A stretch of DNA of 64,000 nucleotides from Candidatus Shapirobacteria bacterium (GTDB lineage Bacteria > Patescibacteriota > Microgenomatia > UBA12405), in contig JBBAAS010000003.1 in assembly GCA_041658125.1 (NCBI GenBank), positions 10,830-74,829 of the forward strand, read 5' to 3'. Position numbers and translations under genes: made by a program. Under the pieces are notes generated by a model, which saw only the letters and a program-made list of their open reading frames with translations, ran no database searches and was not told the origin of the DNA. Shown in pieces: positions 979-62,989 of the stretch; the stretch's first letter is position 1, and each line of letters starts with the position of its first letter.

Positions 979-1776
979 ATGAAAACTAAGACTTCCATTC
1001 TTATCCTTACTTTTTTCCTTTTAATTTATTTTGTTCCCAACCACCTTATCCACACCTTACCTTCACTCAATCACATTCTTTCTCTTGCTGGTCAATACGC
1101 CAATCCTAATCTTTCCGACTCTTCTTATCCCGACGATCTTGTGATCGCTCTTAATCAAGGTAACTTATCAATAAACCGTCCTTCTCCTTTTTGTCTTATT
1201 CTTGACCCTAAAACCAACTCCGGTCTAGTTTTTGACCAAAATGCCTCCCCTGATCCTTCTTCATATACTTCCAATAATTTTTATCCGAACCTTTGTCGAC
1301 CGTTTTTTCTTTTTGGTAAAAATTTTATCGTTTACCCCCAAGATCAAACTTTTATAGTTATTCAAAACCCTTCCTTTTATAATTTTTCTCTTAAAAAGTC
1401 GGATCTTCCAAAACTTATTCCTTTTTTAATTAAAGTCAGTCGGATTGTTTTTTACACGATACCCTTTTGGGGGACTTTTCTTGCTTTACTTTTTCTTCTT
1501 CTTAACAATTACTGGTACGCCTTTATCGCTTCCACTGCCTCAAAGATTTTTAAAATCGACACCACTGCGTCGATCAAAAAATATTATGGTTTAACCTTGT
1601 TTCTCTTTACTCTTTTAATTATTTTTGATTTGGTTATTATTGCCGCTCTTGAGACCATTTTTTCTACTAAGATTATTTATCCCTTTCCTCTCCGCAACAC
1701 CATTTTAATCACCGTATACACTCTTTACCGCCAGTCCAAAACGAAAACCCCTCCGCCACCGCCCATTTCTTCCTAA
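979..1776 (+). CDS. hypothetical membrane protein with a Pro-rich C-terminus
   Basis: ORF of 265 aa with several hydrophobic segments and a PPPPPISS tail; no recognisable family. Confidence 0.4.
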   Translation: MKTKTSILILTFFLLIYFVPNHLIHTLPSLNHILSLAGQYANPNLSDSSYPDDLVIALNQGNLSINRPSPFCLILDPKTNSGLVFDQNASPDPSSYTSNNFYPNLCRPFFLFGKNFIVYPQDQTFIVIQNPSFYNFSLKKSDLPKLIPFLIKVSRIVFYTIPFWGTFLALLFLLLNNYWYAFIASTASKIFKIDTTASIKKYYGLTLFLFTLLIIFDLVIIAALETIFSTKIIYPFPLRNTILITVYTLYRQSKTKTPPPPPISS

Positions 1777-2540
1777 ATTTCTATCTCTATTCCAATCGGA
1801 CAATGATCACTCCCGGTTACTTCCGGTAAAATAAACGCTTCTTTAACCTGATATTTTAAGCTCTCATCCACAAATACATAATCAATTCTCCAGCCGACAT
1901 TCCTTTTTCTGGCTCCGCCTCTTTGGCTCCACCACGAATATTGCACCTTGTTGCCATTTATTAGCCGATAAGTATCGACCCACCCGTTTTTGACGAGTAT
2001 GTCAATCCAGTCTCTTTCAACTTCCAAAAACCCCGAGATATTTTCATTTGCTTCCGGCCTGGCCAAATCTATGGCTTCATGGGCCGTATTTACATCTCCG
2101 GTAAATATCACTTTTTCTCCTCTTTCCCGTAGTTTATTAATATATTTCAAAAAATAATCGTAAAATTCCATTTTATATTGCAGCCTGCCCTTGTCTTTTT
2201 TACCATTGGGAAAATATACATTTAACAACGTAAATTCATCAAATTTAGTTATTAACACTCTGCCTTCGTCATCCCAATCGTTATCCCTGTCCCCGACAAT
2301 AACTTTTTTCGGTTCTATTTTTGTTAAAGTCATTACTCCGGCATACCCCGCTTTTTTGGCCGCGTTCCAATAGGGGAGATAACCGCTTGGGCACTCAATC
2401 ATCGGTATCTGTTCCGGAAAAGCCTTAACTTCCTGAAAACAATAAATTTCGGCTTTATCTTTTTTTACAAAATCCCATAATCCCTTTTTTATCGCCGCCC
2501 TCATCCCCGCCACGTTCCAGGAAATTATTCTTACTTTCAT
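1773..2540 (-). CDS. xth: exodeoxyribonuclease III / AP endonuclease
   Basis: MKVRIISWNVAGMRAAIKKG...CFQEVK...FTGDVNTAHEAIDL...GSDHCPIGIEIEI carries the ExoIII/EEP family motifs. Confidence 0.85.
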   Translation of the reverse strand: MKVRIISWNVAGMRAAIKKGLWDFVKKDKAEIYCFQEVKAFPEQIPMIECPSGYLPYWNAAKKAGYAGVMTLTKIEPKKVIVGDRDNDWDDEGRVLITKFDEFTLLNVYFPNGKKDKGRLQYKMEFYDYFLKYINKLRERGEKVIFTGDVNTAHEAIDLARPEANENISGFLEVERDWIDILVKNGWVDTYRLINGNKVQYSWWSQRGGARKRNVGWRIDYVFVDESLKYQVKEAFILPEVTGSDHCPIGIEIEI

Positions 2541-2561
2541 AACTAATTATATAATTCTTCT

Positions 2562-2996
2562 ATGGACCATGTCGCTATCATGAAAAAATCCTGGGGTCTT
2601 TTACCGAAAATCAAAACTGGTCAAAAAACTATTGAATCTCGTTGGTATCAAAACAAACACTTACCTTGGGACAAAATTACGATAGGGGATACTGTCTATT
2701 TCAAAGACTCCGGCTCTTTAATTACCACTAAGGCTATTGTCCAAAAAGTTCTTCAATTTGCCAACTTAACTCCTCAAAAAGTCACCGAAATTATTTATCA
2801 ATATGGCTCGCAAGATGGTTTAGCCACCAAAGATTATCCCCAATATATCGACTTATTTAAAAATAAAAACTATTGCCTTTTAATTTTTCTTCAAAATCCA
2901 CAAGAAGTTAATCCTTTTGATGTCGACAAAACCGGTTTTGGCGCCATGTCCGCCTGGATCACCATCCCCAATATTGACACTATAAAAAAACCTTAA
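2562..2996 (+). CDS. ASCH (PUA-like) domain protein
   Basis: 144 aa ORF with LLPKIKTGQKTIESRWY and ITIGDTVYFKDSG, an ASCH-like pattern. Confidence 0.4.
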   Translation: MDHVAIMKKSWGLLPKIKTGQKTIESRWYQNKHLPWDKITIGDTVYFKDSGSLITTKAIVQKVLQFANLTPQKVTEIIYQYGSQDGLATKDYPQYIDLFKNKNYCLLIFLQNPQEVNPFDVDKTGFGAMSAWITIPNIDTIKKP

Positions 2997-3010
2997 AACC
3001 ACTTATCTCT

Positions 3011-3019
3011 GGTATAATT
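3011..3019 (+). promoter_or_regulatory. putative extended -10 promoter (TGgTATAAT) upstream of the 3097 gene and tRNA-Tyr
   Basis: The sequence is ctcTGgTATAATttc, about 80 nt upstream of the ATG at 3097. Confidence 0.3.
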
Positions 3020-3096
3020 TCATCACTTCAGTAAAAAGAAACTAAATAAGGCGACAAACCAATTTAAATTGGTAATAAACGGTGTAGCATACCGTT

Positions 3097-3480
3097 ATGA
3101 AGTTCTTTAAAAATACCAAAAAGCAAGGAGATATGGGACTCGGAATGGCTATTTGCTATTTCACCAATATCGGATACACAGTAGGAATACCGCTAACGGA
3201 CAGCCAGGACTATGATTTAATCATTGATGACGGAAAAAGCCTCAAAAGAGTCCAAGTCAAAACATGTAGTTATAAAAGAAGAGCTTACGAAGTAAATTTA
3301 TCGATAAAAGGCGGGAATAGAACCAGTAGGGGAAAAATTAAACGTTTCGATAATACCAAATGTGTTTTTATTTTTATAGTAACCGAAACCCTTGAAAAAT
3401 ATCTCATTCCCAGTAAGGAACTTAAAGCCAGATCTAATTTGGTTTTAGGACCGAAATACAAAAAATATTTATTAAAATAA
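3097..3480 (+). CDS. YraN/Hjc-like PD-(D/E)XK family nuclease (UPF0102-like)
   Basis: GDMGLGMAICYFTNIGYTVGIPLTDSQDYDLIIDDGKSLKRVQVKT fits the D...D/E-x-K pattern and the spacing seen in YraN/Hjc-type resolvase-like nucleases; 127 aa. Confidence 0.35.
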   Translation: MKFFKNTKKQGDMGLGMAICYFTNIGYTVGIPLTDSQDYDLIIDDGKSLKRVQVKTCSYKRRAYEVNLSIKGGNRTSRGKIKRFDNTKCVFIFIVTETLEKYLIPSKELKARSNLVLGPKYKKYLLK

Positions 3481-3555
3481 CCAGCGGTGACCGAACGGTT
3501 AGGTGATGGTCTGTAAAACCATTTTGAGCAGGTTCGACTCCTGCCCGCTGGACCA
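3481..3555 (+). tRNA. tRNA-Tyr (anticodon GUA) with encoded CCA, of class I (short variable arm) design
   Basis: Acceptor stem CCAGCGG/CCGCTGG, anticodon stem ATGGT/ACCAT, anticodon loop CTGTAAA, 5-nt variable loop, T-arm GCAGG-TTCGACT-CCTGC, then A73 and CCA. The first pair is C1:G72. Confidence 0.8.
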
Positions 3556-3763
3556 AATGTCTCAACCTGATATCCATTCACCTTTTTCAGTTTCTAAAGC
3601 CCCTTCTGAGTCTGATTATTATCGTGCCAATAGTCAATGCCTTTGTGACATTTGTCAAAAACCATACTGGAGGCATTCTTTCGAAACGGACCCTAAGTAT
3701 CTAGATAATAATCAACAACCATTTCTAATCAGATTGTGTAATGGTGATTTAGTGAAACTTTAG

Positions 3764-4687
3764 CTATCCGATAAACCCCTCAATCAATTCCGCCACTTCC
3801 CTCGGCTTTTCTACTGTCACTATATGTCCCGCTTCTTCTATTTCCACAAACCCATAATCTCCTAAATCTTTTAAAGCCATTTTGGCTTGACCACAACTAC
3901 ACAACTTGTCGTGTTTTCCAAAAATAAACAATATTGGCCTTTGGTTGCCGACAATCATTTCTTCAATTTTTTGCCTGGCGATATCCGCCCCCATCTGCAC
4001 ATAAGCCTCTTTTGATGCTTTTTTTCTCCCTACAGTTCCATAGTTTTTAATAAGTTCCTTGTCAAATTTATACATATTTACATATTTTGAAGTCAAATAG
4101 GCATACCAGTTTTTATCCACCACTTTTTTTGCTACGGTTTTTAGTCTGTCTCTTTTGTCCAAAAAATTATAAAACTTTTCCGTTACTTTCATCCCTCTTT
4201 CTTTGTTTCCGTTTTTTACCACCGCTCCTACCAATATTGCCCCCGTTGCTTTTTTTGGATGATTTTTCAAAAAATCGGATACTATAAATGTTCCCATCGA
4301 ATGGCCCAAAATATAAAAATTTTTCAGTTTTAACTCATCAATAAACTTATTCACATATTCCGCTAAAATTTTTACCGAATATTTTGGTAATCTGTCGCTG
4401 TCGCCATACCCCGGCAAATCCATCAGTATCACTCTGTGTTTTTTCATCAGTTCCACCCCAAGCGGAATAAACCCCATCCAATTATTGGTCCAGCCATGGA
4501 TGCAAACGATTGTTGGTCCTTCGGTTATTCTGGTCTTGGTTTCAGCATAGTTTACGGCGACATTTCCTACTTTTATTTTTTTTTCACAAAAGTTTTCACT
4601 TCCGGAAACTTTCGTGTTATCTTTAGCCATCATCCTATGTATCTTACCAAACTCACTCTGGACAATTTCCGCTCTTATCGGAGTCAA
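3764..4687 (-). CDS. alpha/beta-fold hydrolase
   Basis: GHSMGT nucleophile elbow (GxSxG) and an HGW oxyanion-region motif. The likely true start is the internal MMAKD at about 4636, so the gene would not overlap recF. Confidence 0.65.
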   Translation of the reverse strand: MTPIRAEIVQSEFGKIHRMMAKDNTKVSGSENFCEKKIKVGNVAVNYAETKTRITEGPTIVCIHGWTNNWMGFIPLGVELMKKHRVILMDLPGYGDSDRLPKYSVKILAEYVNKFIDELKLKNFYILGHSMGTFIVSDFLKNHPKKATGAILVGAVVKNGNKERGMKVTEKFYNFLDKRDRLKTVAKKVVDKNWYAYLTSKYVNMYKFDKELIKNYGTVGRKKASKEAYVQMGADIARQKIEEMIVGNQRPILFIFGKHDKLCSCGQAKMALKDLGDYGFVEIEEAGHIVTVEKPREVAELIEGFIG

Positions 4688-5698
4688 AGTTTTGATCTTG
4701 ATCCCAAAATTAACCTAATTATCGGCCCCAATGGCTCCGGGAAAAGCAATATTCTTGAGTCAATTTATCTTTTGGCCTCCGGGAAAAGTTTTCGCTCCTC
4801 ATCACTTTCTAAATTAGTCAATTGGAATTCCTCCTTTTCTCTGATCCGGGGGGTCTTGTTGAAAAATAACGAAAATATTAATCTCGAAGTTCAATTAACT
4901 AAAGATCCGGCCAAGGCTAGTACTCTCCGCCGTTTTCTAATTGAGTCTGTTCCTAAAACCAGGGCCAAATACCTTGGTGTTCTCAAAACCGTTATTTTTC
5001 ACCCTGAAGATATCCGTTTGGTTACCGGTTCTCCTTCCCGTCGCCGCGAATTTTTGGACAGCATTTTTCAAACCTCACAATGGCGCTACACTTCCGCTCT
5101 TTCCCAATATAATCGGGCTCTTAAGCATCGAAACGAGCTATTGGATCAAATTCGTCTTGGTAAAAATCAAAAATCCGAAACTTTTTACTGGGACCAGTCG
5201 CTTGTTAAAAATTCTGAAATTATTCATCAGCATCGGCAGGATTTCATCGAATCTGTTAATTATTTTTTTACCACTCATCCCAACTCTGAAATTTCTACCA
5301 TTTCCATAAACTATTATCCCTCCATTCTCACTCCCGAAAAACTTCAAAACAATTTTGCTCACGATCTTGATCGGGGCTACACCCAGTTTGGTCCCCATCG
5401 GGATGATTTCACTTTTGACAATTCAGTTTTTCCTTCAGCCGATAAAAATTTAGCTTTTTGGGGCAGTCGTGGCCAGCAACGGTTGGCTACTTTGGCTCTT
5501 CGTTTGGCTCAAATCGATTATTTCCATCGCACCTATTCAGAAAGCCCCATTCTTCTTCTTGATGATATTTTTTCCGAGCTTGATTATCACCATCGTAATT
5601 TAGTCACCAAAGTTTGTCAAAAATATCAAACGATTTTCACTTCTTCCGAAGAAGGTATCATTTCCATTCTTCCCAAAGCCCATGTTATCCGTCTATAA
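4637..5698 (+). CDS. recF: DNA replication and repair protein RecF
   Basis: MYLTKLTLDNFRSYRSQSFDLDPKINLIIGPNGSGKSNILESIYLL (Walker A) and a C-terminal LLLDDIFSELD. The upstream part of the longer track ORF is frame read-through. Confidence 0.85.
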   Translation: MYLTKLTLDNFRSYRSQSFDLDPKINLIIGPNGSGKSNILESIYLLASGKSFRSSSLSKLVNWNSSFSLIRGVLLKNNENINLEVQLTKDPAKASTLRRFLIESVPKTRAKYLGVLKTVIFHPEDIRLVTGSPSRRREFLDSIFQTSQWRYTSALSQYNRALKHRNELLDQIRLGKNQKSETFYWDQSLVKNSEIIHQHRQDFIESVNYFFTTHPNSEISTISINYYPSILTPEKLQNNFAHDLDRGYTQFGPHRDDFTFDNSVFPSADKNLAFWGSRGQQRLATLALRLAQIDYFHRTYSESPILLLDDIFSELDYHHRNLVTKVCQKYQTIFTSSEEGIISILPKAHVIRL

Positions 5699-6266: not shown

Positions 6267-6327
6267 TGACACCGATAATTTCGGTTTTCATTTTCATTTT
6301 TTCCCGATTGTATCGGGATTCGTACTA

Positions 6328-7796
6328 AGAGTTTGATCGTGGCTCAGGGTGAACGCTGGCGGTGTGCCTAAGACATGCAAGTTGAACGGTCCCGATGATC
6401 CCCGCAAGGGGGCTATCGGGACAGTGGCGAACGGGTGAGTAATGGATAGGAACGTACCTCCCAGAGGGACATAGCCCCGCGAAAGCGGGGGTAATTTCCC
6501 ATATTCCCGCAAGGGGAAAGATGCAAATCACTGGAAGAGCGGCCTATTTGCTACCAGCTAGTTGGTGGGGTAATGGCCTACCAAGGCGATGACGGCTAAC
6601 GGCTCTTAGCGGAGAGTCCGTCACAATGGGACTGAGACACGGCCCATACACCTACGGGTGGCAGCAGTTAGGAATTTTGCGCAATGGACGAAAGTCTGAC
6701 GCAGCGACACCGCGTGGAGGATGACAGCCCTCGGGTTGTAAACTCCTTTTCTTTGATATTACTTTCAGAGGAATAAGTAGCTACTAACTACGTGCCAGCA
6801 GTCGCGGTAATACGTAGGCTACAAGCGTTACCCGGTTTTATTGGGTGTAAAGGGTCTGTAGGTGGTTTTTTAAGTCTTGTTTCAAAGACTCCGACTCAAT
6901 CGGAGGAAGGGGCAGGATACTGGGAAACTAGAGTTATATCGGAGTTACTGGAATTTGTAGTGTAGGGGTAAAATCCGTGGATACTACAAAGAACACCAAG
7001 CGCGAAGGCGGGTAACTAGGTATTTACTGACACTTAAAGACGAAAGCTAGGGGATCAAATCAGATTAGAGACCTGAGTAGTCCTAGCCGTAAACTATGTC
7101 TGTTAATTTTTCTCGGCTTTTGCCGGGGGAGGTGTAAGCTAACGCGTTAAACAGACCACCTGGGGAGTATAGCCGCAAGGCCGAAACTCAAACGAATTGG
7201 CGGGGAGGCGCACAACCAGTGGAGCATGTGGTTCAATTCGATACTAAGCGATGAACCTTACCTGGGTTTGAAATCCTGCTGCAAGCCCGCAGAAACGCGG
7301 GCCCCCTTCGAGGGTGCAGGACAGGTGTTGCATGGCTGTCGTCAGCTCGTGACGTGAGTTGTTCTCTTAAGTGAGGTAACGAGCGCAACCCCCATCCGGT
7401 GTTACTGTGTCACCGGAGACTGCCCAGCATTATTTTTGTTGGGAGGAAGGAGGGGACGACGTCAAGTCAGCATGATCCTTATGTCCAGGGCTACACACAT
7501 CCTACAATGGGCTTTACAAAGGGTTGCTAAACCGCGAGGTCAAGCTAATCCCTAAAAGAGCCCCCAGTTGGGACTGCAGGCTGAAACTCGCCTGCACGAA
7601 CTCGGAATTGGTAGTAATCGCACATCAGCAGCGTGCGGTGAATACGTTCTCGCCTCTTGCACACACTGCCCGTCAAATCAGCAAAGTTGAAGGTACCCAA
7701 AACTTCCGTTTATTCGGGAACTAAGGTAAAGTCAGCGATGAGGGTTAAGTCGTAACAAGGTATCCGTACTGGAAGGTGCGGATGGATCACCTCCTT
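6328..7796 (+). rRNA. rrs: 16S ribosomal RNA, about 1.47 kb, not followed by a 23S gene
   Basis: Begins AGAGTTTGATCgTGGCTCAG and ends GGATCACCTCCTT. Internal landmarks GTGCCAGCAGtCGCGGTAA and GcACACACtGCCCGTCA are present. It is a bacterial type with primer-site mismatches. Confidence 0.9.
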
Positions 7797-7870
7797 TGAG
7801 GATTTGTCCCGATCGAAAGATTGGGACCATGAATCGAACTCTTCTGGTACTGACAATCTGACTTCAAACA

Positions 7871-46757: not shown

Positions 46758-46763
46758 AACAGA

Positions 46764-47206
46764 GGAGATGCCCACTAACGAAGCGGGGTCCAAAGTTGAC
46801 TGAAAAAGACGTCTACAAGCTTAAGATAATTTTCTCCTACACTCTCACTGGCTAAAATTAACAAAAGGCAGTGAAATGCCGATTGGTGAGGGCATTACCC
46901 CTCGCTTGTCTTTTTAGAAAATCGGGATCCTAAAAATAGCATTTCGGTTTAGTTAACACTGATTAATCTTCTCCGAAATAGGGGACTAATCAATGACTAG
47001 CGGCTTACGCCAAAGCGTAAACGGCTTGGCTGGCGGGTTGACTTGCGAAAACCGAACCAGTTACTTCACGAGCCTGATTAAGGGCTGTTCGAAGAGCATT
47101 ACCAATTTTGTTGGCATTATATTTTTGGTCCTTGTTTAGCGACTCTAGAACCAAAGTCGGCTTGCAGTCTTTTAAGGTACAAACTCTGTCGATTCAATTC
47201 ATCTCC
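46764..47206 (-). ncRNA. ssrA: candidate tmRNA (ssrA); boundaries are tentative
   Basis: On the minus strand the 5' end is GGAGAUG-AAUUGAAUCGACAGAG (tmRNA-like D-analog), and the 3' end is GGAC-CCCGC-UUCGUUA-GUGGG-CAUCUCC (T-arm plus a 7-bp acceptor complementary to the 5' end). An internal reading frame ends ...ASQAVYALA-UAA. Adjacent to smpB. Confidence 0.4.
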
Positions 47207-49889: not shown

Positions 49890-50546
49890 TTATACCATCT
49901 TAAATCCGCTGGCAAGTTCCGACAGTTCTTTTTCCTGGTCGCCTGCTTTGACCACGTCTGTCGCTACCAAAATGCCCTTTGCTCCCATTTTCAAGGCTAC
50001 CAGTACATCTTCCTTAGAATGAACCCCGGCTCCGGCCAGCGTCGGAATTACCCCGTATTTTTCCGCTATTTTTTTGATTATTTCCGGTTTTTCCGTCGCT
50101 ACCGACTTTTCTCTGTTTCCGATCAGATATTTTGGTTCATAGGCAACCATCGTTGGTTTGATGTTTTTTGCCCAACCTTCCATCTGCCCGATGGTTTGCA
50201 GACAAACCACACTCTCAAACCCCTCCGGCCAGTTACTAAGCATTTTTTTAATCGTTCCCGGCTTTACTCTTTGTTCCGAATGGTTTATTAGGGCTCCGTC
50301 GGCTCCGGCCTCTTTGGCCGCTTTTACCGAAATACTTCCGGTTTTAGCTCCGTCCTCATACTCCGACACCGCTTGGATATAAACTTTTATTCCCAATTCT
50401 TTTTTGATTCTGTAGACATCTAATGCCGATACTACCGGTATTATTACCACTTTTGTTTTTTCCATGACTCTTTTACATACCTCTGCCAACCTCATTGCCC
50501 CTTCCCCAAACGTTTCTTTATAAATTTTAAAATTTACTAATATCAT
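49890..50546 (-). CDS. tpiA: triosephosphate isomerase, short archaeal-type
   Basis: 218 aa. ILVNFKIYKE, LINHSEQR and AYEPKYLIGN follow the archaeal TIM pattern (NHSE[RK]R, EPPELIG) rather than the bacterial GHSERR, which occurs at about 250 aa. Confidence 0.75.
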   Translation of the reverse strand: MILVNFKIYKETFGEGAMRLAEVCKRVMEKTKVVIIPVVSALDVYRIKKELGIKVYIQAVSEYEDGAKTGSISVKAAKEAGADGALINHSEQRVKPGTIKKMLSNWPEGFESVVCLQTIGQMEGWAKNIKPTMVAYEPKYLIGNREKSVATEKPEIIKKIAEKYGVIPTLAGAGVHSKEDVLVALKMGAKGILVATDVVKAGDQEKELSELASGFKMV

Positions 50547-61135: not shown

Positions 61136-62146
61136 ATGAATCAATCTAAACCCCGCATTCTTACCGGCGACCGGCCCACCGGCCCGCTTCACCTCGGCCA
61201 TTATTTTGGCGCCTTAAAAAATCGGGTTGAGCTTCAGGATCAATACGATACCTTTATTATTATTGCCGATGTTCAGGCTTTAACTGATAACTTTTTAACC
61301 CCCAAAAAAGTCCGCGACAATGTTACCGAGGTGGTTATGGACAACCTCGCCGTTGGTATCGATCCTCAAAAATCGACCATTTTTATTCAGTCTCTTATTC
61401 CCGAAATTGCCGAATTAACCGTTTTTTATTCTAATTTAGTTACCGTCGCCAGGCTTGGCCGCAATCCTACCACCAAAGAGGAGTTAAAACAAAAAGAAAA
61501 ATTGTTCAAGAACAACATTACTTTCGGATTCTTAGGCTATCCTGTTAGTCAGGCCGCCGATATTACTGCTTTTCAGGCGGCGCTTGTTCCGGTCGGCGAA
61601 GATCAGGTTCCCCACGTCGAATTAACCCGGGAAATTGTTCACAAATTTAACGAAATCTACGGCCAAACTTTAGTTGAGCCCCAGGCCAAAGTCGGTACTT
61701 TTCCCCGTGTCAAAGGTTTAGACGGCAATTCCAAAATGGGTAAAAGCCTGAATAACGCTATTTATCTCAAGGATTCTCCCGAAATTATCCGCCAAAAAGT
61801 CAAAATGGCCTACACCGATCCTTTGAAAATCCGCCTTACCGATCCGGGCCATCCGGGCGATTGTATGGTTTTTTATTATCATCAAATGTTTACCGACCCT
61901 ACGGATTTAAAAATTGTCGAATCCGAATGTAAATCCGGTGCCCGGGGCTGTGTTGCCTGTAAAAATCAGTTAGCCGACAATATCATCAAATTTTTAGCTC
62001 CGATCCAGGAAAAACGCCACTACTACGAATCTCATCCGGAAATTGTTCAGCAAATTATATTGGAAGGTACCAAAAAAGCCCGTCTCATCGCCGCCGAAAC
62101 CCTCAAGCAGGTCAAAGCAAAAATGTTTTTAAATTACTTTGATTAA
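61136..62146 (+). CDS. trpS: tryptophanyl-tRNA synthetase
   Basis: ILTGDRPTGPLHLGHYFGAL (HIGH region) and SKMGKSLNNAIYL (KMSKS). Confidence 0.85.
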   Translation: MNQSKPRILTGDRPTGPLHLGHYFGALKNRVELQDQYDTFIIIADVQALTDNFLTPKKVRDNVTEVVMDNLAVGIDPQKSTIFIQSLIPEIAELTVFYSNLVTVARLGRNPTTKEELKQKEKLFKNNITFGFLGYPVSQAADITAFQAALVPVGEDQVPHVELTREIVHKFNEIYGQTLVEPQAKVGTFPRVKGLDGNSKMGKSLNNAIYLKDSPEIIRQKVKMAYTDPLKIRLTDPGHPGDCMVFYYHQMFTDPTDLKIVESECKSGARGCVACKNQLADNIIKFLAPIQEKRHYYESHPEIVQQIILEGTKKARLIAAETLKQVKAKMFLNYFD

Positions 62147-62489: not shown

Positions 62490-62665
62490 ATGCTTTTTGT
62501 AAATTTTTAACCTTATTTTCCCCGCCAGGTTCTGACAAAGGATCGACTACTTCTTGTTTCATTTTTATCTTCAGGTTCCCCCAAGACCCCTAATTATACC
62601 ACAATTATAGGATAAAATCATCATCTCTTGTCTCAGAATACCAGCCTGTCTTTCCGTTTAATCTG

Positions 62666-62739
62666 TGGGCATGCATGGATTCGGACCATGGACCACCGAC
62701 TTATAAGATCGGTGCTCTAACCAACTGAGCTACATGCCC
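62666..62739 (-). tRNA. tRNA-Ile (anticodon UAU)
   Basis: Minus-strand GGGCATG-TA-GCTCAGTTGGTTAGAGC-A-CCGAT-CTTATAA-GTCGG-TGGTC-CATGG-TCCGAAT-CCATG-CATGCCC-A. Anticodon TAT; no encoded CCA. Confidence 0.75.
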
Positions 62740-62785: not shown

Positions 62786-62787
62786 TG

Positions 62788-62859
62788 TAGCAGGGGTGGG
62801 AATCGGACCCACAACCTATCGCTTATGAAACGATCGCTCCACCGTTGAGCTACCCTGCC
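62788..62859 (-). tRNA. tRNA-Met (anticodon CAU; elongator or possibly lysidine-Ile2)
   Basis: Minus-strand GGCAGGG-TA-GCTC-AACGGTG-GAGC-G-ATCGT-TTCATAA-GCGAT-AGGTT-GTGGG-TCCGATT-CCCAC-CCCTGCT-A. Confidence 0.75.
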
Positions 62860-62919
62860 AATGGCTGGATTATACCAAAAAAGCCGCCATTCCTGGCAGC
62901 TTTCTGTTAACACCCTGGG

Positions 62920-62989
62920 TTGCGGGGTCAGGAGTTGAACCTGATCTGTGAGATTATGAGCCTCACGTGCAGCCGTACACTACCCCGCA
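62920..62989 (-). tRNA. tRNA-Met (anticodon CAU), initiator-like acceptor stem
   Basis: Minus-strand TGCGGGG-TA-GTGT-ACGGCT-GCAC-G-TGAGG-CTCATAA-TCTCA-CAGA-TCAGG-TTCAACT-CCTGA-CCCCGCA-A. The acceptor GCGGGG/CCCCGC plus A73 matches bacterial fMet, but position 1 is U, paired with A72. Confidence 0.7.

Follow-up and report, generated by a model that had tools for sequence, protein, structure and literature searches.

The 64,000-nt stretch of a Candidatus Shapirobacteria genome that we analyzed (contig JBBAAS010000003.1 of assembly GCA_041658125.1), referred to below as the window, carries a gene for tyrosine tRNA (tRNA-Tyr) at positions 3481-3555 of the forward strand, directly preceded on the same strand by a small endonuclease gene (3097-3480). 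ARAGORN called four tRNA genes in the window, one of them being this tRNA-Tyr (anticodon gta); Rfam matched positions 3481-3552 to the tRNA family RF00005 with 58.9 bits (E = 3.6e-10), and the transcribed strand folds into a cloverleaf of -28.7 kcal/mol (z = -2.5). Direct reading of the bases revealed an acceptor stem of CCAGCGG/CCGCUGG, with C1:G72 as its first pair, a discriminator base A73 followed by a CCA that is encoded in the gene itself, an anticodon loop of CUGUAAA, and a variable region of 5 nt (UUUGA), giving a total of 75 nt including the CCA. The tRNA thus has no long variable arm and belongs to class I, and on the tRNA side the elements of archaeal/eukaryal-type tyrosine identity (C1:G72, A73, the GUA anticodon and a short arm) are all present. 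The initial annotation of the window had described a tRNA-Tyr with precisely these features, and ARAGORN, Rfam and the base reading all agree with that description.

Relatives of this gene were collected from JGI metagenome contigs using a pattern that combined the D-arm motif, the anticodon loop and a T loop at a fixed 15-nt spacing, while the acceptor stem was left unconstrained. Because the pattern demanded a short variable region, it does not provide a fair sample. The search retrieved 26 loci with 23 class I tRNA-Tyr genes, and each of the latter (23/23) carried C1:G72 and A73 even though the acceptor stem had not been part of the pattern, some of them with compensatory variants elsewhere in this stem (CCAGTGG/CCACTGG, CCTGAGG/CCTCAGG and CCAACGG/CCGTTGG). 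The stems of 19 distinct metagenome homologues could be aligned without indels; the acceptor, anticodon and T stems were 100% paired, and both C1:G72 and C2:G71 were found in 19/19. Changes on both sides of the pair were seen in 10 stem pairs, a number reached by none of 500 shuffles (0/500), and the covariation signal was lost when the pairing partners were slid. As read from the alignment, pair 10:25 of the D stem also covaries, being A:U in 4 sequences and G:C in the rest of the 19. The 3' CCA (3553-3555) is gene-encoded in the window and in metagenome locus L092, whereas most Shapirobacteria relatives encode C74 alone, so that their tRNA-Tyr transcripts need CCA addition.

The chromosomal position of the gene is also conserved. 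In at least 12 related metagenome loci we found the same order of a YgjP-like gene, an oppositely oriented exonuclease III-type gene (ExoIII), a gap that varies, the tRNA-Tyr, and a RecF-like gene. The upstream anchor of this arrangement in the window is ExoIII (1773-2540, reverse strand; PF03372, E = 2.9e-28), homologues of which lie upstream of the tRNA-Tyr in 11 metagenome loci, with an additional partial match in L109; the downstream anchor is the RecF-like gene (4637-5698, forward strand; a gene call with SMC_N/AAA Pfam matches in L001), which has homologues of 46-64% identity downstream of the tRNA-Tyr in 9 loci. Since ExoIII in the syntenic loci is just 65-72% identical to the window ExoIII, the shared gene order indicates that the tRNA-Tyr has held its place in the chromosome for a long time. 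The conserved site, the invariant C1:G72 and the compensatory changes in the stems therefore suggest that the tRNA-Tyr at 3481-3555 is a resident gene, and that it is unlikely to be an accessory copy.

We then asked which tyrosyl-tRNA synthetase (TyrRS) accompanies this tRNA. No TyrRS was found in the window by tblastn with the M. jannaschii and E. coli enzymes as queries, nor in the stretches that flank the window in other assemblies. The sole match in the window, an open reading frame (ORF) at 61136-62146 (forward strand), was rejected as a TyrRS because NCBIfam (TIGR00233, 280 bits) and PDB (1yi8, Deinococcus TrpRS II, E = 1.7e-99) identify it as a bacterial-type tryptophanyl-tRNA synthetase (TrpRS), which is the only class Ic synthetase in the window. 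A protein search with the M. jannaschii TyrRS gave, among the matches listed, only methanogens or engineered variants; in a scan of genome collections with a profile of human and methanogen TyrRS, the matches listed comprised DPANN archaea, methanogens and one Dojkabacteria fusion, with no Shapirobacteria among them. In four of the metagenome loci (L097, L110, L092 and L108), an archaeal-type TyrRS adjoins the same kind of tRNA-Tyr, and these enzymes are 33-36% identical to the M. jannaschii TyrRS and show no match to that of E. coli. A profile built from these four tRNA-adjacent enzymes, followed by a Shapirobacteria-only profile, yielded many TyrRS proteins named Shapirobacteria and, through NCBI accession blocks, led to the TyrRS of the genome under study, a protein of 361 aa that we denote P0309 (MFA4827078.1 and MFA5796039.1).

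The assignment of P0309 to this genome rests on several observations. Three window proteins, which NCBI lists under 'Candidatus Shapirobacteria bacterium' (Patescibacteria group, Microgenomates group), each have two accessions, in the MFA4827xxx and MFA5795xxx blocks, pointing to two metagenome-assembled genomes (MAGs) of one organism, one of which is assembly GCA_041645395.1. The same accession blocks are common to P0309, the window nuclease (MFA4827347.1/MFA5795776.1) and the window TrpRS (MFA4827449.1/MFA5795837.1), and in both MAGs the accession number of P0309 falls within about 270 of that of the nuclease. P0309 is further present in the ENA assemblies ERZ27249422 and ERZ27247322, the same two that hold the window TrpRS. 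Its gene neighbours are bacterial, encoding GreA, a sortase, RelA/SpoT, UvrC, UvrA, UvrB, an AspRS-type (class IIb) synthetase and the seryl-tRNA synthetase SerRS. In a relative whose genome is available as a single 949-kb contig, both parts are found together: this Shapirobacteria contig (Ga0172380_10000001, probably a nearly complete genome) carries the tRNA-Tyr (L104) as well as a TyrRS, P0222, that is 76% identical to P0309.

By sequence, P0309 falls on the archaeal side. It scored 381.6 bits against the archaeal-type NCBIfam model NF006330 (cut-off 220), and 104.7 bits, below the cut-off of 113.8, against the bacterial model TIGR00234; its best PDB match was the Pyrococcus horikoshii TyrRS (2cyc, E = 1.3e-108), followed by other archaeal/eukaryal TyrRS, with no bacterial TyrRS among its PDB matches. 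The long variable arm of bacterial tRNA-Tyr is bound by the S4-like C-terminal domain of bacterial TyrRS. The length of P0309, together with a Pfam record consisting of the catalytic core (PF00579) only, implies that it has no such domain. In the M. jannaschii TyrRS, Tyr32 and Asp158 form the tyrosine pocket and Phe261 and Asp286 read G34, and in an alignment with this enzyme (39% identity) P0309 keeps the equivalents of all four. Also kept are the equivalents of R132, R174 and K175, the residues with which the M. jannaschii TyrRS reads C1 and G72 (Tsunoda et al. 2007, PMC1934993). Judged by these matches and by the shared accession blocks, P0309 is the archaeal-type TyrRS of the window's genome. 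The archaeal-like tyrosine decoding system that the initial annotation had raised as an idea is thereby supported, down to the acceptor-recognition residues of the synthetase. With its TrpRS classified as bacterial, the archaeal replacement in this genome touches the tyrosine system and not the tryptophan system.

The tRNA and the synthetase closely parallel the standard archaeal system of M. jannaschii, which is known as an orthogonal pair. Both tRNAs have C1:G72, A73, a GUA anticodon and a short variable loop, and their acceptor stems match in 6/7 pairs (CCAGCGG versus CCGGCGG); neither synthetase has an S4 domain, and the residues contacting the first base pair and the anticodon are shared. 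The differences are that P0309 is of the longer, Pyrococcus-like form (361 aa versus 306 aa, KMSKS being preceded by an insertion), that the host is a bacterium, and that the D arm of the Shapirobacteria tRNA is like those of bacterial class II tRNAs and not like that of archaeal tRNA-Tyr. This D arm, CCGAACGG...GG, resembles the one of E. coli tRNA-Tyr, which we take to be CCGAGCGG, the M. jannaschii counterpart presumably being GUUCAGCCUGG.

We hold with high confidence that the tRNA at 3481-3555 is a resident, vertically inherited tRNA-Tyr, and that the Shapirobacteria lineage (Microgenomates, within the Candidate Phyla Radiation (CPR)/Patescibacteria) has swapped the bacterial tyrosine identity system for one of archaeal type. 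P0309 would charge this tRNA, and the two would make up the sole tyrosine pair of the cell. The body of the tRNA may have come from a bacterial long-arm tRNA-Tyr in which the arm was lost and the first base pair flipped. Such a system is already known for this lineage: C1-G72 tRNA-Tyr genes together with archaea/eukarya-type TyrRS were described in CPR bacteria by Mukai, Reynolds, Crnkovic and Soll (2017, Life 7:8, 'Bioinformatic Analysis Reveals Archaeal tRNATyr and tRNATrp Identities in Bacteria', PMC5370408), with Shapirobacteria named among the main bacterial groups having such a TyrRS in the legend of their Figure 2. These authors consider the C1-G72 tRNA-Tyr genes of CPR to be of bacterial descent, with which the likeness of the D arm to bacterial long-arm tRNAs agrees. 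Nothing essential sets the window apart from the pairs reported there, in which arm-containing and arm-lacking versions of the tRNA both occur; it adds a more recent MAG from the same lineage. Many CPR tRNA-Tyr are long-armed, whereas 23/23 relatives collected here lack the arm, as the short variable region required by our search dictates.

Several considerations weigh against this interpretation or parts of it. Besides the window, we read about 45 kb on other contigs of the genome, and a canonical tRNA-Tyr or a bacterial TyrRS may lie elsewhere. P0309 and the window are on separate contigs and are linked by MAG binning, that is, by their common accession blocks and assemblies, and the pairing of P0309 with the tRNA-Tyr and its charging are predicted from sequence comparison. 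Many of the C1-G72 tRNA-Tyr of CPR bacteria keep their long arm (Mukai et al., PMC5370408), so that loss of the arm is not an obligatory part of the switch. Finally, that the tRNA body is of bacterial origin is drawn from a likeness of the D arm that was judged against the E. coli and M. jannaschii sequences; as no tRNA-Tyr was found near the archaeal TyrRS loci examined for comparison (L006-L085), this part of the argument is qualitative.

The TyrRS searches also yielded several observations on other members of the family. Some Shapirobacteria archaeal-type TyrRS are ~520 aa long as compared to the usual ~365 aa, and six of these long enzymes (P0212, P0281, P0298, P0300, P0331 and P0333) contain an extra PF04073 domain of the YbaK/prolyl-tRNA editing type; P0257, P0342 and P0344 belong to the same length class. 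As far as we have seen, the 2017 paper (PMC5370408) does not mention such a fusion. A Dojkabacteria contig (L012, 376-1875) encodes the B2-domain-TyrRS fusion that Mukai et al. described. Many TyrRS of DPANN archaea (Woesearchaeota, Micrarchaeia and Nanoarchaeota; L006-L045) are 44-62% identical to human TyrRS, the figure for methanogen enzymes being about 40%. One TyrRS deposited as 'Candidatus Methanoperedens sp.' (HWS49098.1) is 81% identical to Shapirobacteria enzymes and shares the 90% cluster of P0193 with a Shapirobacteria MAG protein; it probably stems from a CPR contig that was mis-binned into an archaeal MAG.

The gene immediately upstream of the tRNA-Tyr (3097-3480, forward strand) encodes a free-standing PD-(D/E)XK endonuclease of the PF11645/I-Ssp6803I family, matching PF11645 with 61.2 bits (cut-off 26.1, E = 1.4e-16). 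Among proteins of solved structure it has a single sequence relative, the homing endonuclease I-Ssp6803I (PDB 2ost, E = 0.0018), and NCBI names the protein 'group I intron-associated PD-(D/E)XK endonuclease'. The D...QVK catalytic signature is intact, with YDL...VQVK conserved across CPR and phage homologues; NCBIfam gave no matches for the nuclease or for the two neighbouring small ORFs. The TAA stop codon (3478-3480) touches position 1 of the tRNA-Tyr, leaving a spacing of zero nucleotides. A PD-(D/E)XK nuclease directly upstream of the tRNA had been noted in the initial annotation, correctly so, but the label YraN/Hjc-like that it was given does not hold, as the protein is not YraN and both Pfam and 2ost place it with I-Ssp6803I. 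That prototype, from Synechocystis, shares with the window gene the Pfam family, the D...QVK signature, a similar size and the association with a tRNA gene. Its coding sequence sits inside a group I intron of a cyanobacterial tRNA-fMet gene (PMC13011429), located in the anticodon loop, whereas the window gene stands on its own, upstream of a tRNA-Tyr that is not interrupted; in the region 1700-4800 no group I intron or intron remnant matched a model even at E <= 1.

Among the 13 loci that could be judged upstream of the tRNA-Tyr, the nuclease lies directly against it in 3 (the window, L105 and L100) and is absent from 10, a sporadic presence at one conserved site that is the signature of homing. 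The L105 and L100 nucleases are 72-77% identical to that of the window; the ORF ends 12 nt into the tRNA-Tyr in L105 and 14 nt before it in L100, where the upstream sequence is too short to show ExoIII. We conclude that the nuclease is a sporadic insertion, separate from tyrosine decoding. The predicted homing-type nuclease would have inserted against the 5' end of the tRNA-Tyr in some Shapirobacteria; the nuclease gene and the tRNA probably share one transcript, in which case the cleavage of the tRNA by RNase P would make the 3' end of the nuclease mRNA.

More generally, the interval between ExoIII and the tRNA-Tyr (2541-3480 in the window; also L086, L091, L094, L096, L107, L109 and L111) appears as a hotspot where the cargo varies. 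Four loci (L099, L104, L095 and L102) have no gene there and an interval of just 41-82 nt, whereas the others contain an ORF of 250-260 aa whose N-terminus has a hydrophobic segment, an ORF of 173 aa, one of 144-152 aa, or the nuclease. The window contains, besides the nuclease, a second variable insert, a 144-aa ORF at 2562-2996 (forward strand) without Pfam or NCBIfam match, a homologue of which (48% identical) is found in L096 only, directly upstream of the tRNA-Tyr. In L101, a non-syntenic relative, an 86-aa ORF (3189-3449) ends 20 nt upstream of the same type of tRNA-Tyr (3470-3542) and starts with a motif that, judged by eye, is GIY-YIG-like (MYFVYVL...ELYVGYT); this ORF may be another small nuclease gene, unrelated to the first, that occupies the same spot.

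Homologues of the window nuclease occur in phages, and there too they accompany tRNA genes. A scan of viral contigs (IMG/VR) retrieved 33 loci with 41-56% identity, all of them (33/33) in phage tRNA clusters, and in 22/33 the stop codon of the homologue lies between -10 and +6 nt from the start of a same-strand tRNA. Matches were also found in 53 GenBank phages; 8 of these were inspected, and in 7 the homologue is inside a tRNA array. It abuts a tRNA-Pro in Vibrio phage River4 (gap 0), a tRNA-Tyr in Acinetobacter phage CP14 (gap 1), an unannotated tRNA-Tyr in Klebsiella phage K54_rec4 (gap 0), a tRNA-Ser in Escherichia phage SelmaRatti (gap 2), a tRNA-Lys in Mycobacterium phage Wilder (gap 11) and a tRNA-Ser in Bacillus phage BCP12 (gap 14); in Mycobacterium phage Stubby a degenerate copy lies just after a tRNA-Tyr, and in Escherichia phage WPEC5 no tRNA is nearby. 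All the phage homologues in tRNA arrays are annotated in GenBank as 'hypothetical protein'. The tRNA species abutted, tRNA-Tyr aside, include those for Pro, Ser, Lys, Asp, Gln, Phe, Thr and Ile. By an approximate count made by eye, tRNA-Tyr is the downstream partner in about 8/19 roughly independent lineages, an excess with a binomial P of about 1.5e-5 if 15 tRNA species are assumed to be equally likely. These phage tRNA-Tyr are ordinary G1:C72 long-arm tRNAs. Since the phage homologues sit against tRNA genes, the adjacency seen in the window appears to be a habit of the nuclease family and not a property of the archaeal-style tRNA.

A PF11645 ORF thus ends within about 14 nt, and often 0-2 nt, of a same-strand tRNA gene in phages of Vibrio, Escherichia, Klebsiella, Acinetobacter, Bacillus and Mycobacterium and in Shapirobacteria chromosomes. 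It is conceivable, although we put this forward tentatively, that these genes form a clade of free-standing I-Ssp6803I-like endonucleases specialised for tRNA genes, with tRNA-Tyr over-represented downstream. If true, this would be a homing element that recognises tRNA-gene DNA and has its mRNA 3' end made by RNase P, and that crossed between phages and CPR bacteria despite the difference between their tRNA-Tyr (G1:C72 with a long arm versus C1:G72 with a short loop). Comparable elements are T4 SegB, a GIY-YIG enzyme that cuts the tRNA-gene region of endonuclease-free phages (PMC2330249), and the HNH enzymes (F-Tfl) of T5, which are likewise small selfish endonuclease genes located among tRNA genes and sporadic among relatives. 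The family described here differs from them in its PD-(D/E)XK fold, in having a copy in a CPR chromosome, in its cleavage activity being a prediction from sequence, and in the position of the stop codon, which is no more than a few bases away from where the next tRNA starts. Stand-alone PDDEXK_5 genes have been reported in jumbo phages (PMC12880540); in a limited literature search we found no description of PF11645 genes placed directly against tRNA genes.

The presence of a mobile-type endonuclease gene against the tRNA-Tyr, with relatives in phage tRNA arrays and often by tRNA-Tyr, raises the question of whether the tRNA itself is an accessory or foreign copy delivered by a phage or mobile element, with a long-arm G1:C72 tRNA-Tyr and a bacterial TyrRS forming the working pair in the part of the genome outside the sequence that we read. 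We regard this as very unlikely: the tRNA has the same place between ExoIII and RecF in at least 12 loci that have diverged, the majority of them without the nuclease, and a search of 2.9 million viral contigs with the tRNA pattern gave no class I tRNA-Tyr of this kind. The phage tRNA-Tyr that do neighbour nuclease homologues are of the G1:C72 long-arm kind, unlike that of the window, and the genome encodes a matching archaeal-type TyrRS, P0309. Neither does the close juxtaposition of the two genes argue strongly that they form one functional unit, in which the nuclease would process or target the tRNA, or the pair would be the remnant of an intron-containing tRNA gene. The same tRNA-Tyr occurs without the nuclease in 10/13 judgeable loci, the tRNA gene is uninterrupted with no group I intron around it, and the many tRNA species abutted in phages fit a selfish DNA endonuclease better, so that we consider such a unit extremely unlikely in spite of the zero-nucleotide spacing in the window, the adjacency kept in L105 and L100, and the location of the prototype I-Ssp6803I in a tRNA-fMet intron (PMC13011429).

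A different type of explanation is that the archaeal features are an artefact of assembly or binning, with DNA of a DPANN archaeon included in a bacterial bin. CPR bacteria and DPANN archaea co-occur, and cross-contamination of their bins is a known problem (PMC5370408); one TyrRS of the clade is even filed in NCBI under 'Candidatus Methanoperedens sp.'. The tRNA-Tyr, though, shares its contig with bacterial genes, a full bacterial small-subunit (16S) rRNA (6321-7797, Rfam) and a transfer-messenger RNA (tmRNA; 46763-47206, Rfam), which also bear out the bacterial host assumed in the initial annotation. The TyrRS is flanked by the genes for GreA, RelA/SpoT, UvrABC and sortase, and the same arrangement appears in independent NCBI, ENA, JGI and Logan assemblies. 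With both parts on the 949-kb Shapirobacteria contig, the artefact is effectively refuted by single-contig evidence, and we give it almost no credence. A resident archaeal-type tyrosine system with a sporadically inserted nuclease gene beside it is the reading that we retain.

Further features of the window deserve mention. Directly 3' of the tRNA-Tyr lies a Cys-rich ORF of ~68 aa (3557-3763, forward strand) with no family match. A longer, 86-aa version (3503-3763) that overlaps the tRNA-Tyr is probably spurious, as its similarity across loci is limited to the tRNA-overlapping stretch. A scan of 2400-3900 for promoters and terminators gave a number of sites not above that of shuffles. The triosephosphate isomerase (TIM) ORF at 49890-50546 (reverse strand) is of archaeal type, as the initial annotation had remarked: a Pyrococcus woesei TIM query matched it with 33% identity (E = 4e-26), whereas an E. 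coli TIM query found no match in the window. The remaining tRNA genes are a tRNA-Ile with anticodon TAT (UAU; 62665-62739, reverse strand) and, beside it, two tRNA-Met(CAT) genes (62787-62859 and 62918-62989). Bacteria seldom have an isoleucine tRNA with UAU and usually decode AUA with a lysidine-modified CAU tRNA.

With respect to tyrosine decoding, our main finding adds another genome to a point published in 2017 and is not a new idea: tRNA identity rules are not tied to the domain of life, and a bacterium can run an archaeal-type TyrRS/tRNA-Tyr pair. Shapirobacteria amount to a large natural collection of C1:G72 tRNA-Tyr that have a short arm and a bacterial-looking body, with Pyrococcus-like TyrRS to match, and this may be of interest for the engineering of orthogonal pairs. 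The sole possibly fresh lead is the placement of the nuclease family against tRNA genes, which could account for small 'hypothetical' ORFs wedged among the tRNA genes of phages and, if confirmed, would offer a testable case in which one family of homing endonucleases targets tRNA genes in both phages and CPR bacteria.

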